Source: Candidatus Calditenuaceae archaeon
GTDB taxonomy: Archaea > Thermoproteota > Nitrososphaeria_A > Caldarchaeales > Calditenuaceae
NCBI GenBank assembly: GCA_025058055.1
Contig: JANXEU010000007.1
Location: forward strand, 379 to 64,378
DNA length: 64,000 bases
Direction of reading: 5' to 3'
This document shows positions 9,536 through 46,646 of the stretch, piece by piece. Under the pieces are notes generated by a model. It made no database searches, was not told where the DNA came from, and saw only the letters and a list, made by a program, of their open reading frames with translations. The position numbers and the translations under genes were made by a program. Every line of letters begins with the position of its first letter. Position 1 is the first letter of the stretch.

Positions 9536-9568
9536 CTACTTATTGAGCGGATAGAACTCTGAGACATA

Positions 9569-12604: not shown

Positions 12605-12646
12605 CAACGCGTTTTTGAACTTAGTGCGCAACTTAGATTCCCCACC

Positions 12647-13621
12647 TCAAAATATCAAACTGGTCCATCGTCTTAGAACCGAGACGAGCCCGTTTCTGAA
12701 AACGGAGAACAATATAACAAGCACCGCACCGTACACGCTGAGTGATATGGGTCCCAAATACCGAACATTTTCGTTGATGTACGTAAAGATAACAGAACCT
12801 ATAACGGGTCCCATGACAGATGCCAACCCGCCAAAAACCGCCATTACCTGAGAAAGGATGTCTATGCTCGCAAAAGAGTAGTAGATAGGAGCGACCAGCC
12901 CATTGAAGTATCCGTAGAGGGCTCCTGCTGCACCGATGACGAAACCAGATATCGAGGCTACAATCACCTTGACACGTGTAACGTTAATTCCGACGACCTC
13001 CGAGGCCAGCTCCTCGCTCTTTACAGCCTTCATTATAAGACCCCATCTGCTCCTTTCCAACAACCAGTACCTTACGACAATCCACAGAATCGCCAAAGAG
13101 ACCGCTATGAAGTAGTTCGTCAATTCCAAACCCAGTGTCGCTTCCAATGGGCCCAGGCTGAGGGTGGGTGGCCGAAAGCCTGTGTCACCTCCTGTGACGC
13201 TGACTAAACCAGTTACGACGTTCTCGAAGATGAGCTGAAAAGAGAGCGTTAGGATCGCAACGAAAGCGACTCCAAGCTTTCTGACGTTAGACACGTAGCT
13301 CAGACCCGCCGCGACTCCGGCCGACATCACCGAACCGATTACTATAGTAAGCCACTGACTCAACCCGAAGTGAAGGCTGAGCAAGCCGCTGACATAGGCT
13401 GAGATCCCCGCTAGCGCAGCGACGCAGAGGAAGAGCTGATTCGTTCCGCCGAACAGAAGCGCAAAGGAACCTGCGAACACGGTGAAGTACGCCATTTGAG
13501 TCAAAATCCTCCAGTAGTATCGTCCGGTGAAGACGAAAGGGAGAACTATCAGAACCGCGATGAGGGCTAGCAGCGCGTAAAACTTGAGACTGTCTGATGT
13601 CAGACCGGAGCTGGGTCGCAA
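12647..13621 (-). CDS. livM: Branched-chain amino acid-type ABC transporter permease (LivM-like)
   Basis: 324 aa polytopic membrane protein with the LivM/BPD_transp_2 pattern. Confidence 0.75.
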   Translation of the reverse strand: MRPSSGLTSDSLKFYALLALIAVLIVLPFVFTGRYYWRILTQMAYFTVFAGSFALLFGGTNQLFLCVAALAGISAYVSGLLSLHFGLSQWLTIVIGSVMSAGVAAGLSYVSNVRKLGVAFVAILTLSFQLIFENVVTGLVSVTGGDTGFRPPTLSLGPLEATLGLELTNYFIAVSLAILWIVVRYWLLERSRWGLIMKAVKSEELASEVVGINVTRVKVIVASISGFVIGAAGALYGYFNGLVAPIYYSFASIDILSQVMAVFGGLASVMGPVIGSVIFTYINENVRYLGPISLSVYGAVLVILFSVFRNGLVSVLRRWTSLIF

Positions 13622-13632
13622 ATCCTCCTCCC

Positions 13633-14322
13633 CTACGGAGCCATTGGGAATTCCTGCACACCTTTCTCCCTGAAGACCTTCTCGAAACCGTAGATCTCGT
13701 ATGAAGTCTTGCCTTGGTCGTAGAGCCTCCTGCTCTCCCTCTCCCTCTCCTCCCTCTGCTTGGCTCGCTGCAAAACTTCCGCCGCTATCTCCCGAGGTAC
13801 AACCACTACACCGTCGTCGTCACCTACTATCACATCACCAGGTTTCACTAGGACTCCGCCGCAGATGACAGGCACGTTGATTGAACCCGGGTGCATCTTC
13901 GAGGACCCAATCGGGGAGACGTGTCGCGCGAACACTGGAAAACCCATCCTCCGGATCTCGGCAACATCTCTAACCGAACCGTCAACGACCACGCCGGCGA
14001 TGCCTTGACGCTTCGCCTGATAGCTCATCAAACCTCCCCACATGACGCCTAGAAGTCCGCTAGCGGCGATCACGATGACGTCACCTGGCTTGGCGAGGGC
14101 CATTGCTCTGTGCACCGTAACGTTGTCTGCGGGGTAACTGTTCACAGTGAGGGCAGGTCCAACCAGCTTAACGTCTTGTGCTATAGGCTTGATCTCAGGG
14201 TCCATAACGCACCTGTATTCCTTACTGATCGACTCGTAAACTGTTGAAGCCCCGAGGTCTTTGAAAGCATCTATTATCTCCCTCGGTAACTTAGGAAAAT
14301 CCCTGTAGACTATCGAGGTCAT
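13633..14322 (-). CDS. RraA-family protein / class II HMG-CHA aldolase-like (4-hydroxy-4-methyl-2-oxoglutarate aldolase family)
   Basis: ~229 aa from ATG 14322 (MTSIVYRDFPKLPREIIDAFKDL...). The ORF track starts at GTG 14343. RraA fold motifs are present (GDVIVIAASG...GGLMS...GIAGVVVDGSVRD..GDVIVGDDDGVVVVP), plus a ~60 aa C-terminal extension as in ProA/LigK-type aldolases. Confidence 0.7.
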   Translation of the reverse strand: MTSIVYRDFPKLPREIIDAFKDLGASTVYESISKEYRCVMDPEIKPIAQDVKLVGPALTVNSYPADNVTVHRAMALAKPGDVIVIAASGLLGVMWGGLMSYQAKRQGIAGVVVDGSVRDVAEIRRMGFPVFARHVSPIGSSKMHPGSINVPVICGGVLVKPGDVIVGDDDGVVVVPREIAAEVLQRAKQREERERESRRLYDQGKTSYEIYGFEKVFREKGVQEFPMAP

Positions 14323-14381
14323 CCTTATCCCGGAGGATGCCACCTGCTAATATATCTGATTCGCGTCTGTTTGAGAACGGT

Positions 14382-15275
14382 TCACTCGAACTCTCCGAGA
14401 ATCCCCTCGGGTCTGCTGAGGAGGACGACAGCAGCTGCCAACAACATTATCACCACGGACATGAAGGTGCCGACCAAGAAGCTCGCAACCATGTAAACTA
14501 TCCCCAGCAGAACACCCGATATGACCGTTCCCAGGATGCTTCTCACGCCGCCGACCACGCTGATCAACAGCGCGAGCACCGTAATCTCTATGCCAGACTC
14601 AGGCCCAATAGTGGCCGCCAACCCCCTCATTATGCCCGCAGCTCCAGCGAGGCCGCAACCCAGCACGAAGGTGATGAGCCTCATTCTGTCAATGGGGATG
14701 CCCGTAATCTCTGCTCCGGTCTCGTTCTGAGAGACTGCCCTTATGGCCTTACCTATTATCGTCGCCCTCAAGAGCGCTGCTAGAAGCATGAGCAACCCCA
14801 AGGATATGAGAGCGGAGAGGATCGCCGAAAACCGAAACGACATCCCCATAATCGTGATGGTCTGAACCTCGGGTCTGATAGAAAGGTAAACTGTCGGGAA
14901 CTGATTGGTGAAGTAGCCGTGAAGCAAAAGATAGAGGCCCAAAGTGATGAAGAGCCCGAGGAGCACGCGCTGCTCGCCCACGGACCTGAAGGCCGGCAGC
15001 AGAACCACCTTATAGACGAAGCCTCCGAAGGCGGCTGCGAGAGCAACACCTGCGAATGTTGCAGGGAAGACACCAATCGAGGGAATGAGCAGTGCCGCCG
15101 AGACGGAGGCGATCACCGCGAACTCGCCGTGTGAGATGTTGAGAATGTGAGCCTGACCGAATATCATTGTGATTCCGACAGCGACTAGTGCCAGCTGAAG
15201 CCCAAAAGTCACGCCGTCAACGATAATCACAGGCAGCTGCGAGATAAGGACAGCGGGGTTTTCTGCCACCATCAC
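14382..15275 (-). CDS. livH: Branched-chain amino acid-type ABC transporter permease (LivH-like)
   Basis: 297 aa membrane protein. It overlaps the livF stop by 4 nt. Confidence 0.75.
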   Translation of the reverse strand: MMVAENPAVLISQLPVIIVDGVTFGLQLALVAVGITMIFGQAHILNISHGEFAVIASVSAALLIPSIGVFPATFAGVALAAAFGGFVYKVVLLPAFRSVGEQRVLLGLFITLGLYLLLHGYFTNQFPTVYLSIRPEVQTITIMGMSFRFSAILSALISLGLLMLLAALLRATIIGKAIRAVSQNETGAEITGIPIDRMRLITFVLGCGLAGAAGIMRGLAATIGPESGIEITVLALLISVVGGVRSILGTVISGVLLGIVYMVASFLVGTFMSVVIMLLAAAVVLLSRPEGILGEFE

Positions 15276-15997
15276 GATCCACCGAGATAGTTGGCTCTCA
15301 CCCGTGGGTCTTGAGTCAGCACACGTGCGTCGCCTTTCATAACCACACGCCCACCCTCAAGCACGTAGACGAGCTCGCAGACCTTGAGCACAAGAGTTAC
15401 CTTCTGCTCTACCAGCAGTATCGTGAGGTCCTCGTTAAGGTCGCTGAGAAGGCGAAGCGAGTTGAAAAGCTCCTCCGTCAATAGAGGCGCCAGACCAGTC
15501 GACGGTTCGTCCAGTAAAAGAAGTCGGGGAGAGGACATCAAAGCCCTTCCGATGGCGAGCATTTGTTGCTCTCCACCGCTGAGCGTTCCCGCCTTCTGGT
15601 TCAACCGCTCGCGCAACCTTGGGAACAAGGAGAAGACGTAATCGAGGTTCTTCTCTATCTGGTCCTTGGCACGCGCCGTGTACGCACCTAGCTCAAGGAT
15701 CTCCTTCACAGTCATTTTCGGGAAAAGTTCCTTCTCAGCAGGAACGTACGCAATCCCCATCTTGACCCTCTCGTACGCAGGTACACCGTTTAGCCGCTTC
15801 CCCTCGAGAATTACCTCGCCCTTCTTAGGTTGTATGAGGCCAGCAACGGCCCTCATGAGAGTGGTCTTTCCAGCTCCGTTAGGCCCAATAACTCCAACTC
15901 TCATCCTCCGCTCAGGGATCTCTAAGTTAACCCCCCAAAGGACCTGAAACTCACCGTAACCAGCCTCTAGACCCTTTACCTCTAGGTAGGCGGTCAA
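15272..15997 (-). CDS. livF: ABC transporter ATP-binding protein (LivF-like)
   Basis: Walker A GPNGAGKTT, signature LSGGEQQ, Walker B LLLLDEP. Confidence 0.8.
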   Translation of the reverse strand: MTAYLEVKGLEAGYGEFQVLWGVNLEIPERRMRVGVIGPNGAGKTTLMRAVAGLIQPKKGEVILEGKRLNGVPAYERVKMGIAYVPAEKELFPKMTVKEILELGAYTARAKDQIEKNLDYVFSLFPRLRERLNQKAGTLSGGEQQMLAIGRALMSSPRLLLLDEPSTGLAPLLTEELFNSLRLLSDLNEDLTILLVEQKVTLVLKVCELVYVLEGGRVVMKGDARVLTQDPRVRANYLGGS

Positions 15998-16737
15998 ATC
16001 TCCACGCTCCTCCCGAGATATGCCTCGATTACCCTGCTGCTCTCCGCAATCTCAGACGGCGTACCCTCTGCTATGATCTCACCGAAATTCAGAACAACGA
16101 CCCTCTGCGCCAACCTCATTACAGCCCTGAGAAGGTGCTCTATCCAGAGAATCGTAACGCCGCTCTCCTCGTTCACCCTCCTCAACAGCTTTACAGCCTC
16201 GTCCACTTCAGAGGGGTTTAACCCGCTCATGTACTCGTCAACGAGAAGGAGTTTCGGCTGCTGGACGAGGGCCCTCGCGAGTTCGACGGACTTCTTCTCC
16301 TGCAGGTTCAGCTTCTTCACCTCGATGTCCGCTTTACTCTCCAAACCCAAGAACCTCAGGACCTCCTCGGCTATACTTGTAGCGTCGGGCACCCCTCGTG
16401 CTCTCCCGCTCCCTATCGCGCCCACAGCGACGTTCTCTATGACCGTCATGTCACCGAAGGGCCGTGGAATTTGGAAGGTCCTCGACATCCCTAAACGCGC
16501 TCTCTCATAGGGCGGCAGTTTAGTGACGTCCCGACCGTAAAAGACTACTCTACCTGACGTGGGTGGGTAGAGGCCGTTGATCACGTTGAAGAGGGTTGTT
16601 TTCCCCGCCCCGTTAGGCCCTATTATCGCGAGAATCTCACCTTCCGATACGGAGAACGAGACGTTCTTCAGCGCCGGCAACCCACCAAAGCGCTTGCTGA
16701 CCTGATCTAAGGAGAGCGCGACAGGCCGACGATCCAT
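15994..16737 (-). CDS. livG: ABC transporter ATP-binding protein (LivG-like)
   Basis: Walker A GPNGAGKTT, signature MSGLNPSE-like, LLLVDE Walker B. It has a 4-nt overlap with livF. Confidence 0.8.
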   Translation of the reverse strand: MDRRPVALSLDQVSKRFGGLPALKNVSFSVSEGEILAIIGPNGAGKTTLFNVINGLYPPTSGRVVFYGRDVTKLPPYERARLGMSRTFQIPRPFGDMTVIENVAVGAIGSGRARGVPDATSIAEEVLRFLGLESKADIEVKKLNLQEKKSVELARALVQQPKLLLVDEYMSGLNPSEVDEAVKLLRRVNEESGVTILWIEHLLRAVMRLAQRVVVLNFGEIIAEGTPSEIAESSRVIEAYLGRSVEI

Positions 16738-16937
16738 TCTTCCACTGCATACTTTTGAATGATATTTAAATGTATAACATCAGGTACCTAAGTAAGGGAA
16801 AGTCGTGCGGTGAAGGTCTTTCACGTCGTCCGAGGAGAAGTCGGTTAATACCGCGTGAAAAACGCGGCACGGCCCCTCGATTCGCCTAAAAAGATATAAA
16901 AGGGGTGCTGTCTTTCTGCGGCCAGAGTAGGCAAGAA

Positions 16938-18857
16938 ATGGCGCGACACAGCCGCGACCTGAAGGACATGTACGAGTGGGCTGAATCGGACTACTTAGGG
17001 TTCTGGAAGAGCTTCGCTTCAAACGTGGACTGGTTCAGCAAATGGGACGAGGAGTTCTCTTGGGATCGAGAGGAGCACAAGTTCGAATGGTTCCGCGGCG
17101 CACAGACTAATTTATGCTATAACTGCGTCGATAGACATGCCACCGATCCGGAGCTCAGATGGAAACCCGCAATAGTGTGGTGGTCTGAGGGTGCCTCTTC
17201 GAGGAGGGCAATAACCTATTGCGAGTTGTTGGATAGGGTCAGCAGATTCGCCGCTGTTTTGAGGGACAGCGACGTGAAAAGAGGGGACAGGGTAGGGATC
17301 TACATGTCAATGGTGCCTGAGGCCCTGATAGCCATGCTCGCAGCGGTCCGAATTGGGGCGATCCACGTGAACTTCTTCTCCGGCTTGGGAGTGGAATCCG
17401 TTGCGAAGAGGGTCTCTGAGGTCTCACCGAAGATCATGATTGCATTGGACGTGGCCTATCGGCGCGGAAGAGAAATTCAACTCAAAAGTACGCTAGATGA
17501 AGCGCTAGAACTCTCAGGTCATCGTTGCAAGGTGCTCCTCTTTGAACGCAGGCCTGAAGGTGAACCACGCTTGGTGAACGGCGACGAGCGCCTCAGGCCG
17601 ACCACCCTCTCAGACGCGAGTGATCGCGACCGCGTCGAATGCTCGAAGATGGAGTCCAACGAACCAGCTTTCATCAACTTCACCTCTGGCACTACTGGAC
17701 GACCTAAGGGAGTAGTCCATGTTCACGGCGGTTTTCAAGTTGGAATGCCTGCGGCTACGCACATGACGTGCGGTATGAGAGCAGAAGACGTCAGCTTCTG
17801 TCTGGCAGACATAGGATGGATCGGAGGTACTGCTTATGCGGTTTACGCGCCTTTGTTTTTCGGGAGCACTACCGTGCTTTATGAGGGAGCGATCGATTAC
17901 CCGACATCCGACGTCCTTTGGAAGATCGTAGAGGCCGAGCGCGTCACTCTCATGTGGACCTCGCCCACCGCGATGAGATTGCTGATGAAGCACGGCCCTG
18001 AACCGGCAAGGAAACACGACATCACAAGCCTGCGATATGTCCTCTGTGGAGGCGAAGTCCTAACATCACCCGTTAGGAAATGGTTCGAGGAGAACGTTTT
18101 ACCTGAGGGAACGGTGCTCATCGATCACATGGGACAGACCGAGGCAGGATGTATGATGATAACTTACCCATTTGGGCTTGCGAGCGACCTGATCATTAAA
18201 CCCGGTGCTTGTGGCTTCCCGCTGCCCGGGATGATCGTGAGAGTCGTCGGTGAGGACGGAAAGCCCGTGCCGGTGGGGGTGAAAGGTGAGATGGTCGTCG
18301 AGAAGCCATTCCCAAGTCTTACGCCGACCGTCTGGGGCGACCACTCGAGATACGTTGAGGATTACTGGAGCAAATACCCTGGAAGGTACAGAGTGGGCGA
18401 TATGGCGTACGTCGATGCGGATGGTTACGTCTACTTGTTGGGTAGGGCTGATGAGACGCTCAAGGTCTCGGGACATAGGATTGGTGCGCCTGAGCTCGAG
18501 ACGGTTATTTCAGAGCTGCCAGAGGTCGCTGAGGTGGCTGTCGTTGGGGTCCCTGATGAAGTCAAAGGCGAGGTAGCCGTAGCCTACGTCGTTCTGAGGC
18601 AGGGCAAATCCCCCTCTAAGGATCTGACTGATGCCATCGCTACAGAGGTAAAGAGAAAGTACGGCGCGATCGCCGATGTCAGATATGTCGTGTTCGTGAG
18701 CTCCCTACCGAAGACACGGACCGGTAAGATAATGAGACACCTTCTCAAGGCCATCGCCCGAAGAACGGAGCTCCCCGATTACTCGAACATAGAGGAGGAG
18801 TCCATCGTCGCAGAGTTAGTGGCTAAAACGAATGAAGCGCTACAGAATGGGAAATGA
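16938..18857 (+). CDS. AMP-forming acetyl-CoA/short-chain acyl-CoA synthetase (ACS family)
   Basis: ACS N-terminal domain (DYLGFWKSFA...), P-loop FTSGTTGRPKGVVH, C-terminal LPKTRTGKIMR. The ORF track starts at GTG 16905; ATG 16938 (MARHSRDLKDMYEW) is preferred. Confidence 0.8.
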   Translation: MARHSRDLKDMYEWAESDYLGFWKSFASNVDWFSKWDEEFSWDREEHKFEWFRGAQTNLCYNCVDRHATDPELRWKPAIVWWSEGASSRRAITYCELLDRVSRFAAVLRDSDVKRGDRVGIYMSMVPEALIAMLAAVRIGAIHVNFFSGLGVESVAKRVSEVSPKIMIALDVAYRRGREIQLKSTLDEALELSGHRCKVLLFERRPEGEPRLVNGDERLRPTTLSDASDRDRVECSKMESNEPAFINFTSGTTGRPKGVVHVHGGFQVGMPAATHMTCGMRAEDVSFCLADIGWIGGTAYAVYAPLFFGSTTVLYEGAIDYPTSDVLWKIVEAERVTLMWTSPTAMRLLMKHGPEPARKHDITSLRYVLCGGEVLTSPVRKWFEENVLPEGTVLIDHMGQTEAGCMMITYPFGLASDLIIKPGACGFPLPGMIVRVVGEDGKPVPVGVKGEMVVEKPFPSLTPTVWGDHSRYVEDYWSKYPGRYRVGDMAYVDADGYVYLLGRADETLKVSGHRIGAPELETVISELPEVAEVAVVGVPDEVKGEVAVAYVVLRQGKSPSKDLTDAIATEVKRKYGAIADVRYVVFVSSLPKTRTGKIMRHLLKAIARRTELPDYSNIEEESIVAELVAKTNEALQNGK

Positions 18858-19090
18858 ATTCGTTTACAGCTCAAGGTATGATAGTGCGTTGAACCATAGA
18901 AACGTCGAGCGATCTCAAGCATGGTTTAATGAGCTTCTGCCTTCGGACATACCTCACGTTCGTGATCGCCCAGAGCCTAGACCCGAGAAGTTTTCTTCTC
19001 CTGTTGATGAATCCGTCGACGTCCCTTACGCGCTATCCAATTTCAGATTGAGAACCTGATTGTGTCATTGCACGCCTATCCGATTCAACA

Positions 19091-19100
19091 CGTTGATATA
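19091..19100 (+). promoter_or_regulatory. TATA box upstream of the SDR gene
   Basis: tgatataaag lies about 28-37 nt upstream of ATG 19128. Confidence 0.4.
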
Positions 19101-19127
19101 AAGCAAGTTAGGTTTGCTCTTAATGGC

Positions 19128-20078
19128 ATGAGGATACTAATCACAGGGACAGGTTTCATAGCGAGCTATGTGGCTAAGAAGCTCCTCGATACGGGCGATG
19201 AGGTCACGCTTTACGGCTATTTCGAGAACCCACAGGCTATGGCTAACGTGATCGGCGACTTGGAGAAGGTCGGGAGAGTTAAGGGCGACGTGCTCGAGAC
19301 AGATCATCTGATTCGTACAGTGAAGGAGCGGGAGGTGGATGCTATAGTACACACCGCTGCAGTACTTATCGCTGGTGCGAGGGAGAACCCCTTCAACGCG
19401 GTTAAGGTTAACGTGCTTGGAACGGCATCGGTTCTAGAGGCCGCTCGAACGACTGATGCCAAGAAGGTGGTGTACACGAGCTCCGGAAACGTCTATTCTA
19501 TGTTGAACCCGTTCATCAAATATCTTCCACCCGAAGGCGGCCTCGTTAAGGAAGACGACCAGACAATACCCGGGAGCGTTTACGGAACCACGAAACTCGC
19601 AAGCGAACTCTTAGGCTTGAACCACTCGCAGATATACGGAATCGACTTCGTGGCCCTCAGGCTTCCAACAGTCTACGGCGGCTGGCTTGGTGCCATGGGA
19701 CTAGCCAGCGTCGTGAGGGATATGTGCAGGGCCGCGCTGAGATCTGAACCTTTGACGGTTGAAGAGTACAAGAGCGAATGGTTGCATGTGAAGGATGCAG
19801 CGCTTGCCTGTCAACTCGCCGTTCACTCTAAGAACCTCAAGAACAGAATATTCAATATCGGTACCGCGAAAATAAACTCACTTCGCGAGGCACTTGACGC
19901 GATCTCCGAAGAGCTGAAAAGACCGATCAACAACATAACGATCAAGGAGGTCCAGCGACCGCTTAGGTATCCGGTGGATATAAGCAGGGCGAGGGAGGAG
20001 TTGGGGTTCGAGCCTCAATTCGACTTCAAGTCCGGTGTGATAGATGTCTTGAAGTGGGTACGTTCCTACTACGTCTGA
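19128..20078 (+). CDS. NAD-dependent epimerase/dehydratase (extended SDR) family oxidoreductase
   Basis: MRILITGTGFIASYVAKKLL Rossmann motif. The ORF track starts at GTG 19062. The ATG at 19128 is preceded by TGATATAAAG about 30 nt upstream. Confidence 0.7.
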   Translation: MRILITGTGFIASYVAKKLLDTGDEVTLYGYFENPQAMANVIGDLEKVGRVKGDVLETDHLIRTVKEREVDAIVHTAAVLIAGARENPFNAVKVNVLGTASVLEAARTTDAKKVVYTSSGNVYSMLNPFIKYLPPEGGLVKEDDQTIPGSVYGTTKLASELLGLNHSQIYGIDFVALRLPTVYGGWLGAMGLASVVRDMCRAALRSEPLTVEEYKSEWLHVKDAALACQLAVHSKNLKNRIFNIGTAKINSLREALDAISEELKRPINNITIKEVQRPLRYPVDISRAREELGFEPQFDFKSGVIDVLKWVRSYYV

Positions 20079-20204
20079 CTCCTCTTTCTAAAGGGCTGAA
20101 CGCAGAGCGTCAATCTCCGAACAAGAGGGCACGAATGGAAAGACTTCTAATTACACTCCGATAATCAAGAGGTTTAACGTTGCACCGCGATTAAGGGTCA
20201 ATAT

Positions 20205-20216
20205 TTATATATAAAT
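20205..20216 (+). promoter_or_regulatory. TATA box (tttatatataaa) for ligB-ligA-thioesterase operon
   Basis: A canonical archaeal A/T box lies 28-39 nt upstream of ATG 20244. It is too close to ATG 20226 to serve that start, which supports the downstream start. Confidence 0.55.
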
Positions 20217-20243
20217 GAATGCCATATGAATCTCGAGACGACC

Positions 20244-21062
20244 ATGGTAAAAATTGTGGGTGCATTTGCGACTTCTCACACGCCACAGATCCTCGTCCAG
20301 CCTAAGATCTCAGAAGAGTTCACTAGGCAGCTCCAAGAGGTCCACAACGCCCTTATGCAGGTGGGGAGGAGGATAAAGGAAGCGAACGCAGACACGATAA
20401 TAGTGTTCGGGTCGGATCACATGGAGACGTTCTGGTTGAACAACTACCCGCAACTACTTCTGTTCACGGGGAAGGAGGTTGGTGGGAAGTTCGCTGGGTA
20501 CGAGCTGAGGTTGCCAGCTGACCCGGAACTCTCCAAGGAGTTGCTCTACGGGTTAATTGATTTGGGATTCGACGTCTCCTTCGCCCATGAGCTTGAGCTT
20601 GACCACCCCTATATCTCACCGACGTATTGGGTGCTGAAGGGAGCACAGCACGACTCTTACAGACCGAGAATGATACCATTCCACATCAACAGCAACGTCG
20701 ACCCACGAATCAAACCGAGAAGGGCCTTCGAGCTCGGAAAGGCCATCAGACAGGTCTTGGACGGATCGAAGCTTCAGAACAGAGTTGCCCTGTTAGCGAC
20801 GGGGGGGCTGTCCCACTTCGTCGGCACGCCTTTCTACGGGAAGGTGGATGTCGAGGCTGATAACTTCCTCATCGAGAAGATGAAGGCAGGCAAGGGTTAC
20901 GAGCTGGCCGACCTTACGACGGACTGGCTCGATGAGCATGGCGAGTTCGAGTTCAGAACTTGGCTGACGCTGATAGGGGCCGTGAACAGCGCTCCTGCAG
21001 AGATCATCACTTATCAGAGGGCTTGGCACGCAGGATATTGCGTAGCCTCCTTTAAGGTTTAG
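20244..21062 (+). CDS. ligB: Class III extradiol ring-cleavage dioxygenase catalytic subunit (LigB family; protocatechuate 4,5-dioxygenase beta / gallate dioxygenase-like)
   Basis: MVKIVGAFATSHTPQ... parallels LigB MARVTTGITSSHIP. Fe-binding His motifs are present (GSDHME..., HELELDHPY). The ORF track starts at ATG 20226, but the TATA position favours 20244. Confidence 0.7.
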   Translation: MVKIVGAFATSHTPQILVQPKISEEFTRQLQEVHNALMQVGRRIKEANADTIIVFGSDHMETFWLNNYPQLLLFTGKEVGGKFAGYELRLPADPELSKELLYGLIDLGFDVSFAHELELDHPYISPTYWVLKGAQHDSYRPRMIPFHINSNVDPRIKPRRAFELGKAIRQVLDGSKLQNRVALLATGGLSHFVGTPFYGKVDVEADNFLIEKMKAGKGYELADLTTDWLDEHGEFEFRTWLTLIGAVNSAPAEIITYQRAWHAGYCVASFKV

Positions 21063-21081
21063 ATAAAGAGGTGAGAAGATA

Positions 21082-21384
21082 ATGGTGATCCTATACGGCT
21101 ATCCTGACCCGAAGTACCTGAATTTGTACAAACTCGGCAGAGCCATACACTTGGACCCGCAAGTAAGAGAGAAGTTCAAACTGGACAGAGAAGCGGTGAT
21201 GAACGAGTTCAAGCTCTCTGAGGAAGAAAAAGAGCTCGTCAGATCAGCCGACCCAGTCAAGTTGTTCAAGGCCGGTGTCTCACCCTATACAATCTTCTTC
21301 ATCTGCTGGGAGGGTTACGGATTCATGCAAAAGCCGATTGAAGAACAGATGATGTACAAAAGAATTAAAGAGACACAGCTCTAG
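21082..21384 (+). CDS. ligA: Small subunit of LigAB-type dioxygenase (LigA-like, PF07746-like) - tentative
   Basis: 100 aa ORF 20 nt after the ligB stop with a GGTGA Shine-Dalgarno-like element 9 nt upstream. Its size and position fit a LigA partner. Sequence-level assignment is not certain. Confidence 0.45.
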   Translation: MVILYGYPDPKYLNLYKLGRAIHLDPQVREKFKLDREAVMNEFKLSEEEKELVRSADPVKLFKAGVSPYTIFFICWEGYGFMQKPIEEQMMYKRIKETQL

Positions 21385-21390
21385 AGAATT

Positions 21391-21798
21391 ATGGTTAGAA
21401 GCGTAAAACTGAAGTTCGTGGTGGATTTTTTCGACATCGATGCAAGTGGATGGATAAACGGAGCTGTATACTTCCAATACAACAACAGAATTTTTGAAGA
21501 GTTGCTTAGGAGTAACGGCTACGAATTAAGAGGGCTACTGGAGCGAGGATACGGTTTTCCTCCGGTTCACTACAGAATCGACTACAAGAACGCGGTGATA
21601 TACGGTGACGTTCTTGAAGGTGAACAGGTGGTGACAAGGGTGGGTCGTTCCTCACTTGAGACTGAGTTCAACTTCAGGCGTGCCGATGGTGAATTGATCG
21701 CTCTGGGTACCGTGGTCAGAGTGTTCACAGACATGAGACGCAAGCAATCCGTACCTATTCCTGAAGAGCTGAGGGAGAGACTGTTAAGGGACTTATAG
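21391..21798 (+). CDS. Hotdog-fold acyl-CoA thioesterase (4HBT/YbgC-like)
   Basis: 135 aa. VVDFFDIDASGWINGAVYFQYNN... is the typical 4HBT N-terminal strand-helix. It starts 7 nt after the ligA-like stop. Confidence 0.6.
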   Translation: MVRSVKLKFVVDFFDIDASGWINGAVYFQYNNRIFEELLRSNGYELRGLLERGYGFPPVHYRIDYKNAVIYGDVLEGEQVVTRVGRSSLETEFNFRRADGELIALGTVVRVFTDMRRKQSVPIPEELRERLLRDL

Positions 21799-21845
21799 TG
21801 AAAACATCAATGTGATAACTAAGAAAAAGGGGCGTTTTATTTTCA

Positions 21846-23069
21846 CTACTGCGCAGGTCTGTAGGGCTCTACCGGTGAAGACCTGAATACGACTCTTGGT
21901 ACCCACTTCGCTCCAGGGTTGATCGAGCCGGGGTCTCCTCTCTCGAACTTGTAAAGGATTATTCTGGCCTCTTTGAACTCGCCCCACTCGGTATAGCTCA
22001 ACGGCCACGCGAGCAGCGGGTGATCGAATCTACTGGTCCTGATGTAGTCCGCCACCTTGACCGGATCGACAGATTGAGTCCTCTCGATTGCGTTGGCGAT
22101 GAGCAGTACGTTCAGATACCCGGTCGCTGCGTGGATGTCGAAGAACATGTTGTTAGTACGGTAGAAACGCTCAGCGATTTGTCTGTACTCTGGAGCATCG
22201 AAGTTTATGCACGAGAACTCCAGCAGTCCGGAGTTTATCAGACCGTCTTCTCCGAGGGCTGCCAGCCAGTTATCGACCGGAGTGTAGGAACCTACGAAGA
22301 ACCTAGGCCTCAGACCTATCTCCAGAGCCTGCTTGACGATCGTTGGACCGCCCGGCGGGTGACCCAGCGTAAGCACGACGTCTGGGTTGAGTGGCTGTAT
22401 CCTCCTCAGATAAGAGGTGAAGTCGGTCTCCCTCTGTGGTGCCTCTTCCATCTGATAATTGATGCCGCTGATGGTCTTTATCAGGCGATCTGAAGCGTCT
22501 CTAACCGCGAATCCCCACTCATAGGACGCTATGACGTTAGCGACGTTTCTGAGGTTCTGCTGCCTGATGAACTCAGCTACGGGCTGAGCGTTCATCGGGG
22601 CCGCTGGTAGACACGTTCTGAAGACATACCTGTTGGTTAACGTCAACAGCGTGTGAGACCCAGCCATGTGTAGCAAGAGGGTCACGCGAGCCTTGTTGGC
22701 CTCCGGTGTCAAAGCTGCGGCTATTCCGCTTGAGACTGGGCCGGTTACCGCTACGACCTTGTCCACATCGACGAGTCGTTGAAACGCCGCTACCGCCTCC
22801 TTGGCGTCGTTCTTATCGTCGTAAACCACCAGCTCGACGCGCGCGCCTAGAATGCCACCTCTGTCGTTGATCTCTTTTACCGCCATCTGAGCTCCAGCCA
22901 AGTGTTTCTTTCCCCACGTCGCGAAAGGTCCTGTTAGGGGGTTCAGCGCTCCTATCTTGACTGTCTCTACACCGAGTCTGGGTGCCAACAACGTCGGCAA
23001 CACAAACACTATGGCGATCGCAGCTACAATGACAGCTGCTACGCCCACCACTAAAATTCTCCTATTCAT
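21846..23069 (-). CDS. livK: Leu/Ile/Val-binding protein family ABC substrate-binding protein, membrane-anchored (LivK-like)
   Basis: Type I periplasmic-binding fold (IGALNPLTGPFATWGKKHLAGAQMAVKEIN) with an N-terminal TM anchor. The ORF track starts at GTG 23078; ATG 23069 is preferred. Confidence 0.75.
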   Translation of the reverse strand: MNRRILVVGVAAVIVAAIAIVFVLPTLLAPRLGVETVKIGALNPLTGPFATWGKKHLAGAQMAVKEINDRGGILGARVELVVYDDKNDAKEAVAAFQRLVDVDKVVAVTGPVSSGIAAALTPEANKARVTLLLHMAGSHTLLTLTNRYVFRTCLPAAPMNAQPVAEFIRQQNLRNVANVIASYEWGFAVRDASDRLIKTISGINYQMEEAPQRETDFTSYLRRIQPLNPDVVLTLGHPPGGPTIVKQALEIGLRPRFFVGSYTPVDNWLAALGEDGLINSGLLEFSCINFDAPEYRQIAERFYRTNNMFFDIHAATGYLNVLLIANAIERTQSVDPVKVADYIRTSRFDHPLLAWPLSYTEWGEFKEARIILYKFERGDPGSINPGAKWVPRVVFRSSPVEPYRPAQ

Positions 23070-23148
23070 GCAACCCACCAGATTGTGTTCTAAAATAAAA
23101 ATGCTTTGCAGGAAAGCGTATATGGTCGATGATCAGACCAGAGATCGT

Positions 23149-23856
23149 TTACTTACTCCGCTGCAACTGGAAGTACCTGTATTGTTGACGGGCCTCCCTG
23201 AGCGTCTTGCCGGACCTCACGGACTCGATGATCATCCTCTCCGCCTCTTCGATCTCCTTCGCGTCCCTGAGGACCTCACTCGCCCTCTCTTTGGGAACGC
23301 GGAGAAGCCCTGTGTCGTCGCCAACGATGATGTCGCCCGGCATGATCAGGACTCCGCCTGCCTGTACAGCCACGTTTATCCCATCTATCTGGAGCCGGTC
23401 CTTTCCGGTCCTAGGAATGGTACCTCTCGCGAAGATAGGATATCTGAATCTTAGTATGTTATCGTAATCTCTGAAGACGCCGTCTATCACGGTCCCCGCG
23501 ATCCCCAATTTCATCGCGGTAAAGGTCAGAATGTCTCCCCAACAGGTGTAGCTGGTCACGCCGCCGTTGTCAATCACGATAACGTCACCGGGTTGAGCGA
23601 GATCGAAAAGGTAGTCTCCGATGTCCTCCTTAGTTCCCTGCTCGGCTGGTGAGAGAGGGACGTACCTGACGGTTATGGCAGGGCCTGCGATCCTGACGCC
23701 TTGTACCATCGGACGTATGCCCTCTATTACTCCGCTGATCCTAGTGCGCTCCAATGAGTCAGATATGTTTGGTGTCGAAAGTTCCTTGAAAGCATCGACG
23801 ACGTCCCTTGAAGGTCTGCTCACCTCCTTAACCACAACGGGGTTATAATCACCCAT
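23149..23856 (-). CDS. RraA-family / HMG-CHA aldolase-like protein (paralog 2)
   Basis: MGDYNPVVVKEVSRPSRDVVDAFKEL...GDVIVIDNGG...GIAGTVIDGVFRD...GDIIVGDDTGLLRVP plus a C-terminal extension. The ORF track starts at GTG 23865. Confidence 0.7.
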   Translation of the reverse strand: MGDYNPVVVKEVSRPSRDVVDAFKELSTPNISDSLERTRISGVIEGIRPMVQGVRIAGPAITVRYVPLSPAEQGTKEDIGDYLFDLAQPGDVIVIDNGGVTSYTCWGDILTFTAMKLGIAGTVIDGVFRDYDNILRFRYPIFARGTIPRTGKDRLQIDGINVAVQAGGVLIMPGDIIVGDDTGLLRVPKERASEVLRDAKEIEEAERMIIESVRSGKTLREARQQYRYFQLQRSK

Positions 23857-23962
23857 CTCGTCCACACTCTCAAAGTCAGATTATTAAAAATGCTTGCTGC
23901 TGTTGTCGCAGAGTTAAAAGTTCTTGTCTGAGGGATAAATAGAACCTTGGCGATCCGAACTC

Positions 23963-24637
23963 ATGGTCTCGAGAAAGGTCGTGGACGAATTCGCGAAAAT
24001 TCCCACCTCAAACGTCTCCGACGCCCTCGACAGGTTCAGGATAAAGGGTGGGCTCGAGGACATTTCACCGATCGTGGACAACGTGAGAATCGCAGGTACG
24101 GCGTTCACGGTGAGGTTCGTTCCAGCCAATCAGGTAGAGTTGAAGCCCTGGGTCACGTACATAGACAAGGCCCAGCCTGGCGACGTGGTAGTGATCGATA
24201 ACGGCGGTAGGAAATATTGCACCGTTTGGGGAGGTCTTCTGTCCGCGAGAGCAAAGGACATGGGACTGAGGGGGACGGTGATCGACGGAGTCTGCAGGGA
24301 CATCGACGTTATCAGGGCGATTCGGTACCCGGTCTTCAGCAGAGGTCGGTTCATGATGACCGGTAAGGACAGGGTGCAGCTCGCGGGCCTCAACGAGCCG
24401 ATAAACATCGCAAACGTCCTCATCAAACCTGGTGACGTGATCGTCGCGGACGACAGCGGCGTCGTGGTGGTACCGCAAGAGAAGGCTGAAGAGGTGCTGG
24501 AGGCGGCGCTGGAGATCTACGAGAAAGAATCGAAGATCCTAGAGGAGGTGAAGCGGGGCGTACCGTTATCGGAGGCTAGGGCGAAATACGGTTACGGGGA
24601 ATTGCAGCGCCCCAAAGGCTTAACGCAATCGAAATAG
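23963..24637 (+). CDS. RraA-family / HMG-CHA aldolase-like protein (paralog 3)
   Basis: MVSRKVVDEFAKIPTSNVSDALDRF...GDVVVIDNGG...GLRGTVIDGVCRD...GDVIVADDSGVVVVP. It is divergent from paralog 2 and immediately upstream of the third Mo-hydroxylase. Confidence 0.7.
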   Translation: MVSRKVVDEFAKIPTSNVSDALDRFRIKGGLEDISPIVDNVRIAGTAFTVRFVPANQVELKPWVTYIDKAQPGDVVVIDNGGRKYCTVWGGLLSARAKDMGLRGTVIDGVCRDIDVIRAIRYPVFSRGRFMMTGKDRVQLAGLNEPINIANVLIKPGDVIVADDSGVVVVPQEKAEEVLEAALEIYEKESKILEEVKRGVPLSEARAKYGYGELQRPKGLTQSK

Positions 24638-24664: not shown

Positions 24665-27106
24665 TTGGAGTCCTTACCACCCGAAACGGTTCATAATTTA
24701 TCACGCAAAATAACAACAAGATGGATAGGCAGCCCAGTTAAAAGAAAGGAAGATCTCCGGTTCATAACAGGGAAGGGTCTATTCGTGGACGATTTCAGAT
24801 TCGATAACTGCCTCTATGTCGCATTCGTCAGAGGTAAGGTTGCTCATGCGAAGATAAGACACATAGAGACAGATAAAGCGTCCAGAGTGCGTGGGGTTGT
24901 GAAGGTTCTCACCGGCGAAGAGGTCGCCGATCTCGTCAAACCTTGGCCCCATCTAATTCCAACACCACCTTATTATGGAATCGCTGTTGATAAGATAAGA
25001 TATCAAGGCGAACCTGTGGCTATGGTAATAGCAGAAAGCAAATACGCTGCATGGGACGCGGCAGAGGCGATTGAAGTCTATTGCGAAGGGCTGCGGCCCT
25101 TGGTGACGATCGATGAGGCTTTATCACTCGATGCTCCCCTGATTCACGAGGGGTTCCCACGAAACGTTGCGTGGGAGAAGAAGTTCATTTACGGAGACGT
25201 TGATGGCGACTTCTCAAGGGCCGATAGGGTGGCAAGAGGAAGATACTATTATCACAGGTTCATATCCGCACCTCTGGAACCAACCGCGCTCGCCGCTGTC
25301 TACGATAGACATTCCGGACACCTGACCATCTACGACCAACACCAGCAGGCTCCGATGTATCACGCCAGATACTCCAGGGTGTTAGGCATACCGTCGAACA
25401 GAATTCGCATCAGAGTACCTGACCTAGGAGGAGGATTCGGAAACAAGCAGAGCGTCTACCCATACAGCGCACTAATCGGACTGGCAGCCTTGATAACGGG
25501 AAGACCAGTCAAATTCGTAGCTTCACGATCAGAGGACTTTCAAGCATTGATGCACTCCCCTGATAGATTGGCAAAAGTCGAAGCGGCCTACAAGCTCAAC
25601 GGTGAGGTAATTTCGGTGAGGATGAAGATCTATGACAACTTCGGCGCCTATCTCAGACATCCTGAACCCCATAACGTGACAAGGGCGTTCCCATCGATTG
25701 TCGGTCCTTACAGAATAAAGTCGATCGAGATTGACGCAACAGGGGTGTTCACCAACACCTGCCCGACCGGTCCCAACAGGGGGTACGGACAACAACACGC
25801 TAGCTTCTGCCTTGAGCGCATCATCGACAAGGTGGCTGAGGAGCTCGGATTGGATCCCGTTGAGCTCCGGACGGTCAATTTGATTAGGCGAAACCAGATG
25901 CCCTACGAGACACCCGTTGGATCAGTCTACGACGACGGCGATTACGCAGCAGCGTTGAGTTACGCACTAGAGCTAGCGGAATACGAACAACTCAAGCGAG
26001 AGCGGGAGAAGATGAGAGGAAACGGTGACTTGATGGGGTTGGGCGTTGCCACGATAGTGGAGGGAGGTGCGACCGCCTTCGGGTTCGCTAGGTTGTGGGG
26101 CGGGGATCCGGCCCATGTAGCGGGATATGCCTCCATGGCCGAGTCAGCGTCCGTTAGAGTTCACCCCGACGGGTCAATAACTGTCGCCATGGGAACAGTG
26201 CCACAGGGTCAAGGCCATGAAACCTCTGCTGCACAGATAGTCGCTGATGTTCTGGGCGTCACTCCCGACGACGTGACGGTGATTCCAGGCTTCGATAGCG
26301 ACACGCATCCCTACAGCGCCGCGGGATCAGGCACCTATGCAAGCAGGTTCTCCCAAATAGCAGTAGGCGCGCTGGTCGGAGCCTCACTGCGAATCCGAGA
26401 GAAGGTGTTACACATCGCCGCTCACAAGTTAGAGGCTAACCCTGCAGACTTGGAGATGAGGGACGGCATGATCTACATAAGGGGAAATCAGGAGCGGTTC
26501 ACGACCTTCAGAGAGATAGCTCGAATCGCGCACACCAGATTGGCCGATCTACCTCCGAACACAGAGGCCGGTCTGGATGCGTATTACACCTACCACTTCC
26601 CCTACAGCAAATCGGTCGGTGACGACCTGAGAGGGAACCTCTGTGGGTCATACGCTTTCTTAGCAGGCGTCGCGGCGGTGGTGATCGATAAGGAGACTGG
26701 CGCGGTAGATCTCAGGAGGTTGGTGGTAGTGCACGACTCCGGCAGGGCGTTGAACCCCATGATCCTCGAAGGACAACTGCACGGGGCCGTTGTCAACGGC
26801 ATCGGGGGTGCTCTTCTTGAGGGGTTCGAATATGATCAAGAAGGCAACCTTCTGACTTCAACTTTCGCGGATTATCTGCCTATATCGGCGACCGAGGTAC
26901 CCGAGCTCAGGTTCGGCCACATGGAGACCTCATCTCCTTTCACCCCGTTAGGCGCGAAAGGCAGCGGTGAGGGAGGAACCATATTGGTGCCGGTGCTGAT
27001 TGCCAATGCAATCAACGACGCCCTCAAACCATTAGGAGTCGAGATAACCACGTCGAGACTGACGCCATTCAACGTTTGGCGTTTCATGACCGGAAAAGGC
27101 CTCTGA
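24665..27106 (+). CDS. Molybdopterin-dependent hydroxylase large subunit (XDH/CoxL family), third paralog
   Basis: 813 aa with loop TGPNRGYGQQHASFCLERIID. It lies 27 nt downstream of the RraA-like gene and upstream of two hydrolases. Confidence 0.8.
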   Translation: MESLPPETVHNLSRKITTRWIGSPVKRKEDLRFITGKGLFVDDFRFDNCLYVAFVRGKVAHAKIRHIETDKASRVRGVVKVLTGEEVADLVKPWPHLIPTPPYYGIAVDKIRYQGEPVAMVIAESKYAAWDAAEAIEVYCEGLRPLVTIDEALSLDAPLIHEGFPRNVAWEKKFIYGDVDGDFSRADRVARGRYYYHRFISAPLEPTALAAVYDRHSGHLTIYDQHQQAPMYHARYSRVLGIPSNRIRIRVPDLGGGFGNKQSVYPYSALIGLAALITGRPVKFVASRSEDFQALMHSPDRLAKVEAAYKLNGEVISVRMKIYDNFGAYLRHPEPHNVTRAFPSIVGPYRIKSIEIDATGVFTNTCPTGPNRGYGQQHASFCLERIIDKVAEELGLDPVELRTVNLIRRNQMPYETPVGSVYDDGDYAAALSYALELAEYEQLKREREKMRGNGDLMGLGVATIVEGGATAFGFARLWGGDPAHVAGYASMAESASVRVHPDGSITVAMGTVPQGQGHETSAAQIVADVLGVTPDDVTVIPGFDSDTHPYSAAGSGTYASRFSQIAVGALVGASLRIREKVLHIAAHKLEANPADLEMRDGMIYIRGNQERFTTFREIARIAHTRLADLPPNTEAGLDAYYTYHFPYSKSVGDDLRGNLCGSYAFLAGVAAVVIDKETGAVDLRRLVVVHDSGRALNPMILEGQLHGAVVNGIGGALLEGFEYDQEGNLLTSTFADYLPISATEVPELRFGHMETSSPFTPLGAKGSGEGGTILVPVLIANAINDALKPLGVEITTSRLTPFNVWRFMTGKGL

Positions 27107-27183: not shown

Positions 27184-28119
27184 TTGAACCCAGAATTCAC
27201 TGGCAACGTGAAATTCACCCACCGCATACAGCCTGAGAGAAAGCTGAGGGAGTATGCTTCTCTCCTCGAAGGCGTAGTTGATCTGCACGTACACACTGCG
27301 CCGGACGTACTGACGAGGGCGGTCGACGATTTAGAGTACATCAATTCTCTATCAGAGGTCGGCTACGTTGCCTATCTAGCAAAGAACCACTTCGTAGAGA
27401 CCGCGAGCAGGTCCTACATTTTATCTAAATTCAACGAAAAGGTAAGAGTGTTAGGAGGAGTAGTTCTCAATGAATCTGTCGGAGGGCTGAACCCCTCGGC
27501 TGTCGATAAGGCGTTGTCGATGGGTGCTGCCGAGGTTTGGATGCCTACTTTGGATGCTGAGAACCACATTAGGACGTTCGGAGCTGCACAGCTTCCCACA
27601 ACTCAACGAGTGAGAACGCTCAGTTCGTACAGGGCTCGATCCGCGTGCATAACAGTACTCAACACCGATGGTGAGCTGAAGCCGGAAGTCCAAGAGATCT
27701 TGGAGATGATAGCTGAGGCGGACGCGATTTTGGGCACGGGCCACCTATCTCTGAGGGAGGTCTACAAGGTCGTCGAGGGTGCTAGGAAGGCGGGGGTCAA
27801 GAAGATCTTGGTAACTCACCCGCACTTCAAGGCAACGCGTTTCTACGCCGACGACCAGATCAAATTGGCTGACATGGGAGCGGTCATGGAGCACTGCGCA
27901 GTGGCCGGATACGATCCGAAAGAACTCGCCGAGGACATCAGGAGAATCGGTGTCTCTAGGTGCATCGTCTCGAGTGACGCAGGTCAACCTCACAAGGGAC
28001 ACCCCGTCGATGTTCTCCTCAAGATGATCGAGGAACTGAAGGGCCAAGGAATATCAGACGCTGACATCGAGAGGCTGGTGGTCAAGAACCCGGCCAAGCT
28101 GGTAGAGAACTTCCTCTAG
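27184..28119 (+). CDS. Amidohydrolase-superfamily TIM-barrel metal-dependent hydrolase
   Basis: HxH (VVDLHVHTAPD), later His (ILGTGH, VTHPHF) and a terminal Asp (VSSDAGQPH) in amidohydrolase order. The ORF track starts at TTG 27184, GTG 27205 is also possible, and no ATG lies near the N-terminus. Confidence 0.5.
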   Translation: MNPEFTGNVKFTHRIQPERKLREYASLLEGVVDLHVHTAPDVLTRAVDDLEYINSLSEVGYVAYLAKNHFVETASRSYILSKFNEKVRVLGGVVLNESVGGLNPSAVDKALSMGAAEVWMPTLDAENHIRTFGAAQLPTTQRVRTLSSYRARSACITVLNTDGELKPEVQEILEMIAEADAILGTGHLSLREVYKVVEGARKAGVKKILVTHPHFKATRFYADDQIKLADMGAVMEHCAVAGYDPKELAEDIRRIGVSRCIVSSDAGQPHKGHPVDVLLKMIEELKGQGISDADIERLVVKNPAKLVENFL

Positions 28120-28442
28120 GCCATGAGTCACTCTTCACTCCCCGTCGAGCTGCTCGGTACGATCGAAGAACGCAGGGTTGACGGAATGTCCCGCAATAAG
28201 GTATCGCCCCGAGCGGTCGCGTACGCTGCGTCTCAGGACAACATGAGCTCTCAAACCGTTAAGGGACCTCTTGCCTCGCTTCGGGCAAGATCGCTGTGTG
28301 AACACTCCGGATTCAGGTACCTCTCGGGGCGGGTAACGCAAAGCGAACTGTTGGACACCCCGACCTCAAGGACGATGAGGTCAGAACTCTTTAGACCAAG
28401 GTGTCGTGTGGCACAGCCGGAGGGTGGAGGCAGGAGACAGGG

Positions 28443-46579: not shown

Positions 46580-46646
46580 GAAATAGGTATTTTATCAGGT
46601 AACATCGAACCGAATTGACGACCTGTTGGTGGCTAAACAGAGGACG

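Follow-up and report, generated by a model that had tools for sequence, protein, structure and literature searches.

A LigB-LigA-type extradiol dioxygenase and thioesterase operon proposed for a Calditenuaceae archaeon

Three tightly spaced genes in a Candidatus (Ca.) Calditenuaceae archaeon raise the question of whether hot-spring Aigarchaeota possess a two-subunit enzyme for opening aromatic rings, and of what a thioesterase would be doing beside it. The genes lie at 20226-21798 on the plus strand of the 64,000-nucleotide (nt) stretch of contig JANXEU010000007.1 analysed here (the window), and their consecutive open reading frames (ORFs) encode a LigB-type protein, a LigA-type protein and a hotdog thioesterase. 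These family assignments had been proposed in a first-pass annotation made from the DNA letters alone, and all three hold against Pfam, with scores above the cutoffs. We put the probability at roughly three in four that 20244-21798 is a three-gene operon of this thermophilic archaeon that encodes a heteromeric Fe(II)-dependent LigB-type extradiol dioxygenase together with a thioesterase. The large-subunit gene (20244-21062, +; 272 amino acids, aa) and the small-subunit gene (21082-21384, +; 100 aa) are separate ORFs in different frames, with a spacer of 19 nt by reading of the sequence. The thioesterase gene (21391-21798, +; 135 aa) lies directly past the small-subunit gene, as first described, at a distance of 6 nt and not the 7 nt originally given. 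All close homologues of the three proteins come from genomes of the Caldarchaeales (Aigarchaeota), including Ca. Calditenuis fumarioli, Ca. Calditenuaceae and Ca. Caldarchaeum sp., the first two being the nearest, and genes for a thermosome subunit and a TATA-binding protein are also encoded within the window. The locus is carried by assemblies of the sequencing runs SRR15826899 and SRR15826900.

Placing the large subunit among the class III (LigB-superfamily) extradiol dioxygenases appears sound from sequence comparison. The Pfam family PF02900 (LigB) matched residues 13-263 of the 278-aa ORF (E = 6.8e-28; 97.9 bits against a cutoff of 26.3). In a single-sequence search of solved structures the protein came closest to DesB of Sphingobium sp. 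SYK-6 (PDB 3WKU; E = 1.4e-16), followed by MhpB and the beta chain of LigB. A profile of the orthologues (14 homologues) instead placed LigB ahead (1b4u_B; 142.5 bits, E = 1.3e-40), followed by DesB (137.6 bits, E = 4e-39) and MhpB (133.2 bits, E = 8.6e-38), with HpaD-type (PDB 8iq8, 42 bits), AmnB-type and DOPA-dioxygenase-type enzymes far behind. The family alignment of 14 sequences revealed a 2-His-1-Glu set formed by H12, H59 and E236, together with two further histidines, H121 and H191. H12, H121, H191 and E236 are invariant, and H59 is present in 13 of the 14 homologues, with Gln in the remaining one (P0014). In DesB the equivalents of H12, H59, H121, H191 and E236 are H12, H59, H124, H192 and E239, and the iron ligands of that enzyme are His12, Asn57, His59 and Glu239, with His124 and His192 as the catalytic acid/base residues (PMC3962378). 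The LigB iron ligands His12, His61 and Glu242 likewise correspond to the 2-His-1-Glu site that we tested. The fourth iron ligand of DesB, Asn57, is Ser57 in the archaeal protein, and the DesB carboxylate binder Thr13 is Ala in most orthologues.

The start of the large subunit needs correction. The NCBI record for this protein of the same genome (MCS7094457.1, 'hypothetical protein') is 278 aa long and begins at ATG 20226, a start that the first-pass annotation suspected of lying 18 nt too far upstream. Comparison with related loci bears this out. ATG 20244 and the codons that follow it are invariant in five orthologous loci, and ATG 20226 is not conserved. In L001, L009, L010 and L011 the six-residue extension is impossible, because an in-frame stop lies three codons 5' of the conserved ATG. 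LigB, DesB and the NCBIfam models all start at the methionine equivalent to ATG 20244, and the N-terminus beginning there, MARVTTGITSSHIP, aligns with MVKIVGAFATSHTP of LigB. The likely true start, ATG 20244 (272 aa) in place of the NCBI ATG 20226 (278 aa), is thus well supported.

The DNA just upstream fits this shorter protein. An archaeal TATA-box-like element, TTTATATA (20204-20211, +), extends to 20215 as tttatatataaa and is the putative promoter of the operon. The A/T-rich element is present as first reported, with coordinates that were off by one (20204-20215, not 20205-20216), and L009 has an identical TTTATATA with the same spacing of 31-32 nt to the ATG. Archaeal TATA boxes are centred approximately 26-27 nt upstream of the transcription start. 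By this geometry transcription would probably start from the element at 20204 at a point near 20234, downstream of ATG 20226 and approximately 10 nt before ATG 20244, which would leave the first gene with a very short leader. At the other end of the operon, a T-rich tract, TTTTATTTT (21835-21843, +), lies 37 nt past the thioesterase stop, at the 3' end of a convergent binding-protein gene, and is a candidate archaeal terminator. A scan for bacterial promoters and terminators, a model not applicable to archaea, gave chance-level matches only.

A repeat scan of the promoter region returned only the TATA palindrome and a short palindrome with a GTTTAAC core, GGTTTAACGTTGCACC (20171-20186), approximately 20 nt upstream of the TATA element. 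This core is kept in L009 and could be a regulator binding site. Regulators of the HTH_10 type adjoin LigB-LigA in L003 and L005, and another is encoded at 41432-42115 of the window.

We next consider the 100-aa protein, whose family the first-pass annotation had judged from length and position. PF07746 (LigA) matched it above the cutoff (E = 2.9e-10; 40.6 against 25.3 bits). A profile of 15 orthologues matched DesB over residues 321-374, a part of the LigA-like C-terminal domain (E = 6e-07), and matched LigA itself weakly. An AlphaFold2 model built from 11 sequences (mean predicted local distance difference test score 81) is all-helical, with seven helices. The nine best Foldseek matches to this model in the PDB were chains of the DesB C-terminal domain and LigA (1bou_A), at probabilities of 0.99-1.00, a template-modelling score of ~0.6 and a root-mean-square deviation of ~1.5 Å over 67 columns; the E-values were weak (0.14-0.8) for so small a domain. 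The predicted fold is therefore LigA-like, in keeping with the original assignment to this family. Its description as being of LigA size does not stand, since authentic LigA (1b4u_A) has 139 aa and the archaeal protein is approximately 35-40 residues shorter at both ends than LigA or the DesB domain. Because it is shorter by this much, it has no counterpart of the DesB loop that carries Tyr412'. The profile alignment stops at DesB residue 374, which is residue 69 of the small subunit, and an ungapped extension tentatively puts an invariant Phe72 at the position of DesB Glu377'. In DesB, Glu377' binds the third hydroxyl of gallate, and LigAB has Phe there (PMC3962378).

When 1.84 billion cluster representatives were searched exhaustively with a profile, 44 relatives of the small subunit emerged at E ≤ 1e-3, nearly all of them stand-alone proteins of 70-125 aa. 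We rejected a recently split DesB as its origin on this evidence, as no fusions of gallate-dioxygenase length (~418 aa) were among them, and the small subunit appears from these matches to be a narrow family of its own and not a recently detached DesB domain. The predominance of small, stand-alone relatives would also suit a LigA-domain protein that works alone, for example the precursor of a ribosomally synthesised and post-translationally modified peptide (RiPP) with a leader of the borosin SonA type or the NHLP type. The small-subunit profile does match 'LigA domain-containing' borosin RiPP precursors (SonA, E ~1e-05), which also follow DesB and LigA in the Foldseek list, and the protein has a weak match to the NHLP clan (NF038399, E = 0.0019). 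The SonA match reflects the common helical LigA domain. However, no methyltransferase or other maturase gene adjoins the ORF, its best matches in both sequence and fold are the DesB C-terminal domain and LigA, the gene is strictly coupled to LigB across a wide range of divergence, and the invariant Phe72 pairs, on the tentative ungapped extension, with a Phe of LigAB and with Glu377' of DesB. We therefore regard a RiPP precursor or similar lone protein as highly improbable.

The large-subunit gene directly precedes the small-subunit gene in all retrieved Caldarchaeales loci (L001-L007 and L009-L014), over large-subunit identities to the window protein of 52% to 100% and with spacers of 3-19 nt. 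Adjacency over this range leads us to expect that the subunits form a complex. A Shine-Dalgarno-like GGTG(A) occurs in nearly all of these spacers, and each orthologous locus has either GGTG(A) or GGG; in the window the motif is GAGGTGA (21068-21074, +), which the second gene would use as its ribosome-binding site. In contrast, the order is LigA then LigB in all three non-archaeal relatives with a detectable LigA-like ORF, a metagenome contig (L015), a Burkholderia plasmid (L018) and a Roseomonas plasmid (L019). Gene order outside the archaea was taken from plasmid records and metagenome loci (three with A then B, none with B then A), and a scan of a genome collection with the single LigB sequence returned three close Caldarchaeales loci only. 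Since every retrieved Caldarchaeales locus has one order and the three distant relatives have the other, the large-then-small arrangement appears, on the loci compared, to be real and clade-specific.

The first-pass annotation had presented this order as an inversion relative to Sphingobium. The inversion is real and is conserved in the archaeal clade, but its unusualness was overstated, as the DesB and GalA fusions also keep the LigB part before the LigA part. Fusions of alpha and beta in the opposite order exist too (NF009912). Our literature searches turned up no two-subunit class III enzyme with the large gene first. We see no reason to expect any mechanistic consequence of the gene order.

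Caldarchaeales genomes also hold a second, paralogous LigB-LigA pair, with a large protein of 269 aa that is approximately 53-55% identical to that of the window (L001, 1-137, minus strand; L003/L004, 8001-9122). In L001 this paralogue lies just beyond a PaaK-like ligase gene, and in the genome from which the window derives it may lie just outside the left window edge.

The archaeal pair can be compared with characterised enzymes. DesB and GalA resemble it in that the LigA-like part follows the LigB part, and DesB is the best solved match both for the small protein and, as a single sequence, for the large one, although LigB scores ahead of it by profile. DesB is one polypeptide of 418 aa that forms a domain-swapped dimer, whereas the archaeal system is encoded by two genes, has Ser for Asn57 and tentatively Phe72 for Glu377', and has a shorter lid. 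LigAB of Sphingobium sp. SYK-6 (PDB 1B4U/1BOU) consists of separate alpha and beta polypeptides, as here, but ligA precedes ligB. MhpB and HpaD/HpcB of E. coli, which are 2,3-dihydroxyphenylpropionate 1,2-dioxygenase and homoprotocatechuate 2,3-dioxygenase, respectively, are likewise members of the LigB superfamily; their substrates are catecholic acids bearing an alkanoate side chain, the type that an HpaB hydroxylase would make. Unlike the archaeal enzyme, with its LigA-type partner, they are single-subunit enzymes.

What the enzyme would cleave is suggested mainly by neighbouring genes. The operon lies within a catabolic island for aromatic acids of ~29 kb, which includes genes for an HpaB-family phenol 3-hydroxylase oxygenase (1274-2734, +; PF11794, PF03241) and a flavin reductase (2739-3263, +; PF01613). 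In L001, genes for HpaB, flavin reductase, an ADP-forming acyl-CoA synthetase and a coenzyme A (CoA) ligase directly precede LigB-LigA, and in L003/L004 HpaB starts 18 nt past the LigA stop of the paralogous pair. No other observation points as strongly to a catechol made by an HpaB-type hydroxylase as the compound that the dioxygenase cleaves, and the most likely substrate would be the product of that hydroxylase, for example 3,4-dihydroxyphenylacetate or protocatechuate. A further pointer, to a lower pathway of the protocatechuate or gallate kind, comes from an RraA-like protein (13633-14343, -) of the 4-carboxy-4-hydroxy-2-oxoadipate (CHA) aldolase / oxaloacetate decarboxylase type. It scores above the curated cutoff of NF006731 (202 against 179 bits), the NCBIfam model for CHA aldolase / oxaloacetate decarboxylase, and below that of TIGR02798 (ligK_PcmE; 168.7 against 304.5 bits).

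The third gene of the operon encodes a putative acyl-CoA thioesterase of the 4HBT/YbgC hotdog class. It matched PF13279 (4HBT_2; E = 3.3e-16, 60.3 against 25.5 bits) and PF03061 (4HBT; E = 6.3e-09, 36.5 against 20.6 bits), and its PDB relatives are 2cye, 2av9 and 5wh9, the last being a 4-hydroxybenzoyl-CoA thioesterase. With the hotdog proteins of the Pseudomonas-type 4HBT, YbgC and FadM kinds it shares the 4HBT_2 and 4HBT domains, a DxD motif and a single hotdog of similar length. Alignment to 2cye pairs the motif, D15-I-D17-A-S-G-W, with D-L-D-P-L-G-H; in the Pseudomonas 4HBT the N-terminal catalytic Asp is Asp17, and family knowledge would give the DxD a catalytic role here too. Unlike YbgC, the archaeal protein lies outside a tol-pal context, and it falls short of both the YbgC/FadM subfamily model TIGR00051 (47.3 against 68.7 bits) and the tol-pal YbgC equivalog (37.2 against 141 bits).

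Its distribution is narrower than that of the two subunits. A search of 5.8 billion clustered proteins recovered three clusters of thioesterase homologues, all encoded 4-6 nt past LigA, and the gene is kept in at least three Calditenuaceae lineages, with 69-76% identity across lineages; tblastn located it in Ca. Calditenuis fumarioli as well (69% identity). The Caldarchaeum loci L001, L002 and L014, whose LigB is 83-84% identical, lack it and show a clean junction in its place, and the paralogous LigB-LigA loci L003-L006 lack it too. Given this restriction to Calditenuaceae and this absence from sister LigB-LigA loci, the thioesterase appears to be a Calditenuaceae-only, co-expressed accessory and not part of the core of ring cleavage. 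In L013, a contig of a Calditenuaceae single-amplified genome, an apparent divergent thioesterase start, possibly frameshifted, follows the LigA stop at 3415-3499, before the contig end.

Several observations weigh against the proposed operon and its function. No curated equivalog model was reached for protocatechuate 4,5-dioxygenase, gallate dioxygenase, MhpB or HpaD. For protocatechuate 4,5-dioxygenase the beta subunit scored 70.8 against 317 bits (NF009903) and the alpha models 16-27 against 109-161 bits (TIGR02792, 16.3 against 108.6; NF009919, 26.7 against 141), which is far from LigAB itself; the gallate dioxygenase model NF009904 gave 76 and 28 bits where the cutoff is 412, and the HpaD/HpcB model TIGR02298 gave 29.1 against 316 bits. 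The large subunit is, moreover, about equidistant from LigB, DesB and MhpB by profile score, and with no equivalog reached and three such similar scores the substrate cannot be read from homology. Among the neighbours, LigI/LigJ-like hydrolases were not recognisable (an Amidohydro_2 and a DUF6282 protein were checked), nor did any gene of the HpaE-I type appear, which leaves both textbook downstream routes incomplete. The thioesterase, finally, has no counterpart in sister lineages and must be dispensable for the dioxygenase, and its G+C content at third codon positions (GC3) is 0.54 against 0.64-0.70 in its neighbours, which allows for an unrelated, recently inserted gene. As for the lower pathway, the lack of a recognised LigI/LigJ-like hydrolase among the neighbours led us to reject a simple Sphingobium-type route.

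The low GC3 of the thioesterase and its absence from sister lineages bear on whether it has anything to do with ring cleavage. It could be a general acyl-CoA enzyme that was inserted between LigA and the convergent binding-protein gene, an origin that would account for its low GC3, for its presence or absence as a clean polymorphism at a single junction, and for its resemblance, below cutoffs, to generic YbgC/FadM-type models only. However, every detectable homologue in the 5.8 billion proteins lies directly past LigB-LigA, and the 4-6 nt spacing has been kept while the thioesterases themselves diverged to 69-76% identity, which argues for selection on co-expression. On balance we consider an unrelated role unlikely.

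The opposite possibility is that the thioesterase is intimately tied to catalysis. The first-pass annotation had taken its presence, together with many CoA ligases nearby, to mean that the substrate or product is handled as a CoA thioester. The ligases are there: the window encodes an ADP-forming acyl-CoA synthetase (3323-5437, +) and four AMP-binding genes, comprising a PaaK-like ligase cut by the window edge (4-1131, -), an AMP-forming ligase (5429-7057, -) and two others (16905-18857, +; 35928-37856, -), all recognised from domain matches. On such a scheme the dioxygenase would cleave a catecholic acyl-CoA, such as 3,4-dihydroxyphenylacetyl-CoA or protocatechuoyl-CoA, or its product would be CoA-bound, and the co-translated thioesterase would free the ring-opened acid. 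The conserved position of the thioesterase, 6 nt downstream here and kept in at least three Calditenuaceae lineages, would fit, as would the several CoA ligases of the island. So would the short small subunit, without the stretch that holds the carboxylate binder Tyr412' of DesB, as the pocket could be more open, and the Ala found in most orthologues in place of the carboxylate binder Thr13.

Against cleavage at the CoA level, free acids are the substrates or products of both the ADP-forming acyl-CoA synthetase and the HpaB hydroxylase, and we know of no LigB-type enzyme that cleaves a CoA ester. The core enzyme evidently works without a thioesterase in the orthologous loci L001, L002 and L014 and in the paralogous loci L003-L006. 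Characterised relatives bind the free carboxylate, with free-acid substrates in the substrate complexes of DesB and LigAB (PMC3962378). The restriction of the thioesterase to one lineage thus weakens the case for CoA-ester cleavage and favours the release of a free aromatic acid, and the original deduction of a CoA-ester substrate or product does not follow from its presence. We judge CoA-level cleavage to be quite improbable. The more specific proposal that a short-lidded LigB-LigA of Calditenuaceae may act on the ring of a CoA-bound catecholic acid, for example tyrosine-derived 3,4-dihydroxyphenylacetyl-CoA, with the thioesterase then releasing the product, is a long shot; if true, extradiol cleavage at the level of the CoA thioester would have no characterised precedent in the LigB superfamily.

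We therefore return to a free-acid dioxygenase with an accessory thioesterase. The 272-aa subunit, with its 2-His-1-Glu iron site and its pair of catalytic histidines, would perform ring cleavage, and the 100-aa helical subunit would be expected to cap the active site, by analogy with LigA in LigAB and the C-terminal domain in DesB. The enzyme would cleave a catecholic aromatic acid adjacent to its two hydroxyl groups, and the ring-opened product would enter the dehydrogenase, hydrolase and RraA-type aldolase steps encoded nearby. The thioesterase is probably translationally coupled and most likely hydrolyses aryl-CoA, which would come from the neighbouring CoA ligases or from aromatic amino-acid breakdown. 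In this way it would either supply free acid to the dioxygenase or rescue CoA from dead-end thioesters.

Several genes of the island are candidates for these later steps. Upstream of the operon, an extended short-chain dehydrogenase/reductase (SDR) of the NAD-dependent epimerase/dehydratase family (19128-20078, +; PF01370, E = 6.6e-34) is a candidate pathway dehydrogenase. In L007 and L009-L011 it likewise comes just before LigB, and in L015 an epimerase-family gene, a possible orthologue, adjoins LigAB. The longest ORF of the SDR runs from GTG 19062, yet its orthologues, called at 316 aa, align from residue 23, and the start is probably ATG 19128. Downstream, the convergent gene (21846-23078, -) encodes a Liv-type periplasmic solute-binding protein (PF13458, E = 1.4e-59) and is syntenic in L001, L007 and L009-L011. 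Beyond it lies a divergent pair of RraA-like genes of the class II aldolase / oxaloacetate decarboxylase family (23149-23865, - and 23963-24637, +; PF03737, E = 2e-36 and 2e-41), syntenic in L001 and L009, both products of which score below the CHA-aldolase cutoffs. The window thus contains three RraA-like paralogues, of which only that at 13633-14343 passes this cutoff; its gene sits between two ABC permease genes, a layout also found in L003.

A DUF6282 protein (27184-28119; E = 2.5e-68) is a candidate for a pathway step. We found no NCBIfam or PDB relative of it, and its gene lies between those of a molybdenum (Mo) enzyme and the Amidohydro_2 protein, in an arrangement syntenic in L009. The Amidohydro_2 protein (28401-29336) has no NCBIfam match and, as PDB relatives, only the uncharacterised 3irs and 3cjp. 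Domain matches identified three Mo large subunits of the xanthine-dehydrogenase family, of 750, 807 and 813 aa (7283-9535, 9569-11992 and 24665-27106), and no genes for FAD or 2Fe-2S subunits adjoin them among ORFs of 150 aa or more. The nearest models to the 813-aa protein are those of the alpha subunit of archaeal glyceraldehyde dehydrogenase and of CO dehydrogenase, with scores below cutoffs, and such an enzyme could oxidise a ring-fission semialdehyde.

The island also holds an isochorismatase-family gene, a Liv-type ABC transporter and an acetyl-CoA-synthetase-like ligase. Compared with L001, a block of approximately 13 kb (7283-20078) separates the HpaB/ligase block from the operon here; it comprises these genes together with two of the Mo large subunits, the RraA-like gene embedded in the transporter and the SDR.

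Elsewhere in the window, a 638-aa ORF (46626-48542) fuses an N-terminal S-adenosylmethionine-dependent methyltransferase to a C-terminal ATP-grasp domain of the D-Ala-D-Ala-ligase type. A full-length homologue of the SBP56 selenium-binding protein, a family that includes methanethiol oxidases, is encoded at 49728-51119 on the minus strand (E = 4e-185). A tRNA-Val gene (31801-31872) was the sole match in an Rfam scan.

It has been suggested that Aigarchaeota degrade lignin-like or other aromatic compounds. Beam et al. (2015) described an operon of Ca. Calditenuis aerorheumensis that contains homologues of both LigA and LigB, proposed this role for them and noted that the genes occur in other Aigarchaeota (PMC4681859). 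That paper names no substrate, and its passages on the operon do not discuss gene order, a thioesterase or the start codon. The locus described there may differ from that of the window and be one with a Rieske-type oxygenase. The new elements here are the corrected start, the clade-wide large-then-small order, the restricted distribution of the thioesterase and the linkage to HpaB.

The operon belongs to a well-known kind of enzyme, and the view of how such enzymes work is left unchanged; what is noteworthy is the gene order, the archaeal host and a small correction of the start. In the literature that we searched, we found no characterised archaeal ring-cleavage enzyme of the LigB type. The comparative data correct the start of a protein listed by NCBI as 'hypothetical', reveal a clade-wide order that mirrors that of the fused gallate dioxygenases, and link HpaB-type hydroxylation, aryl-CoA hydrolysis and ring cleavage in a testable form. 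With a thermostable two-subunit extradiol dioxygenase, the hot-spring Aigarchaeota would join the lineages capable of aerobic aromatic catabolism, and the enzyme could also serve as a useful biocatalyst.

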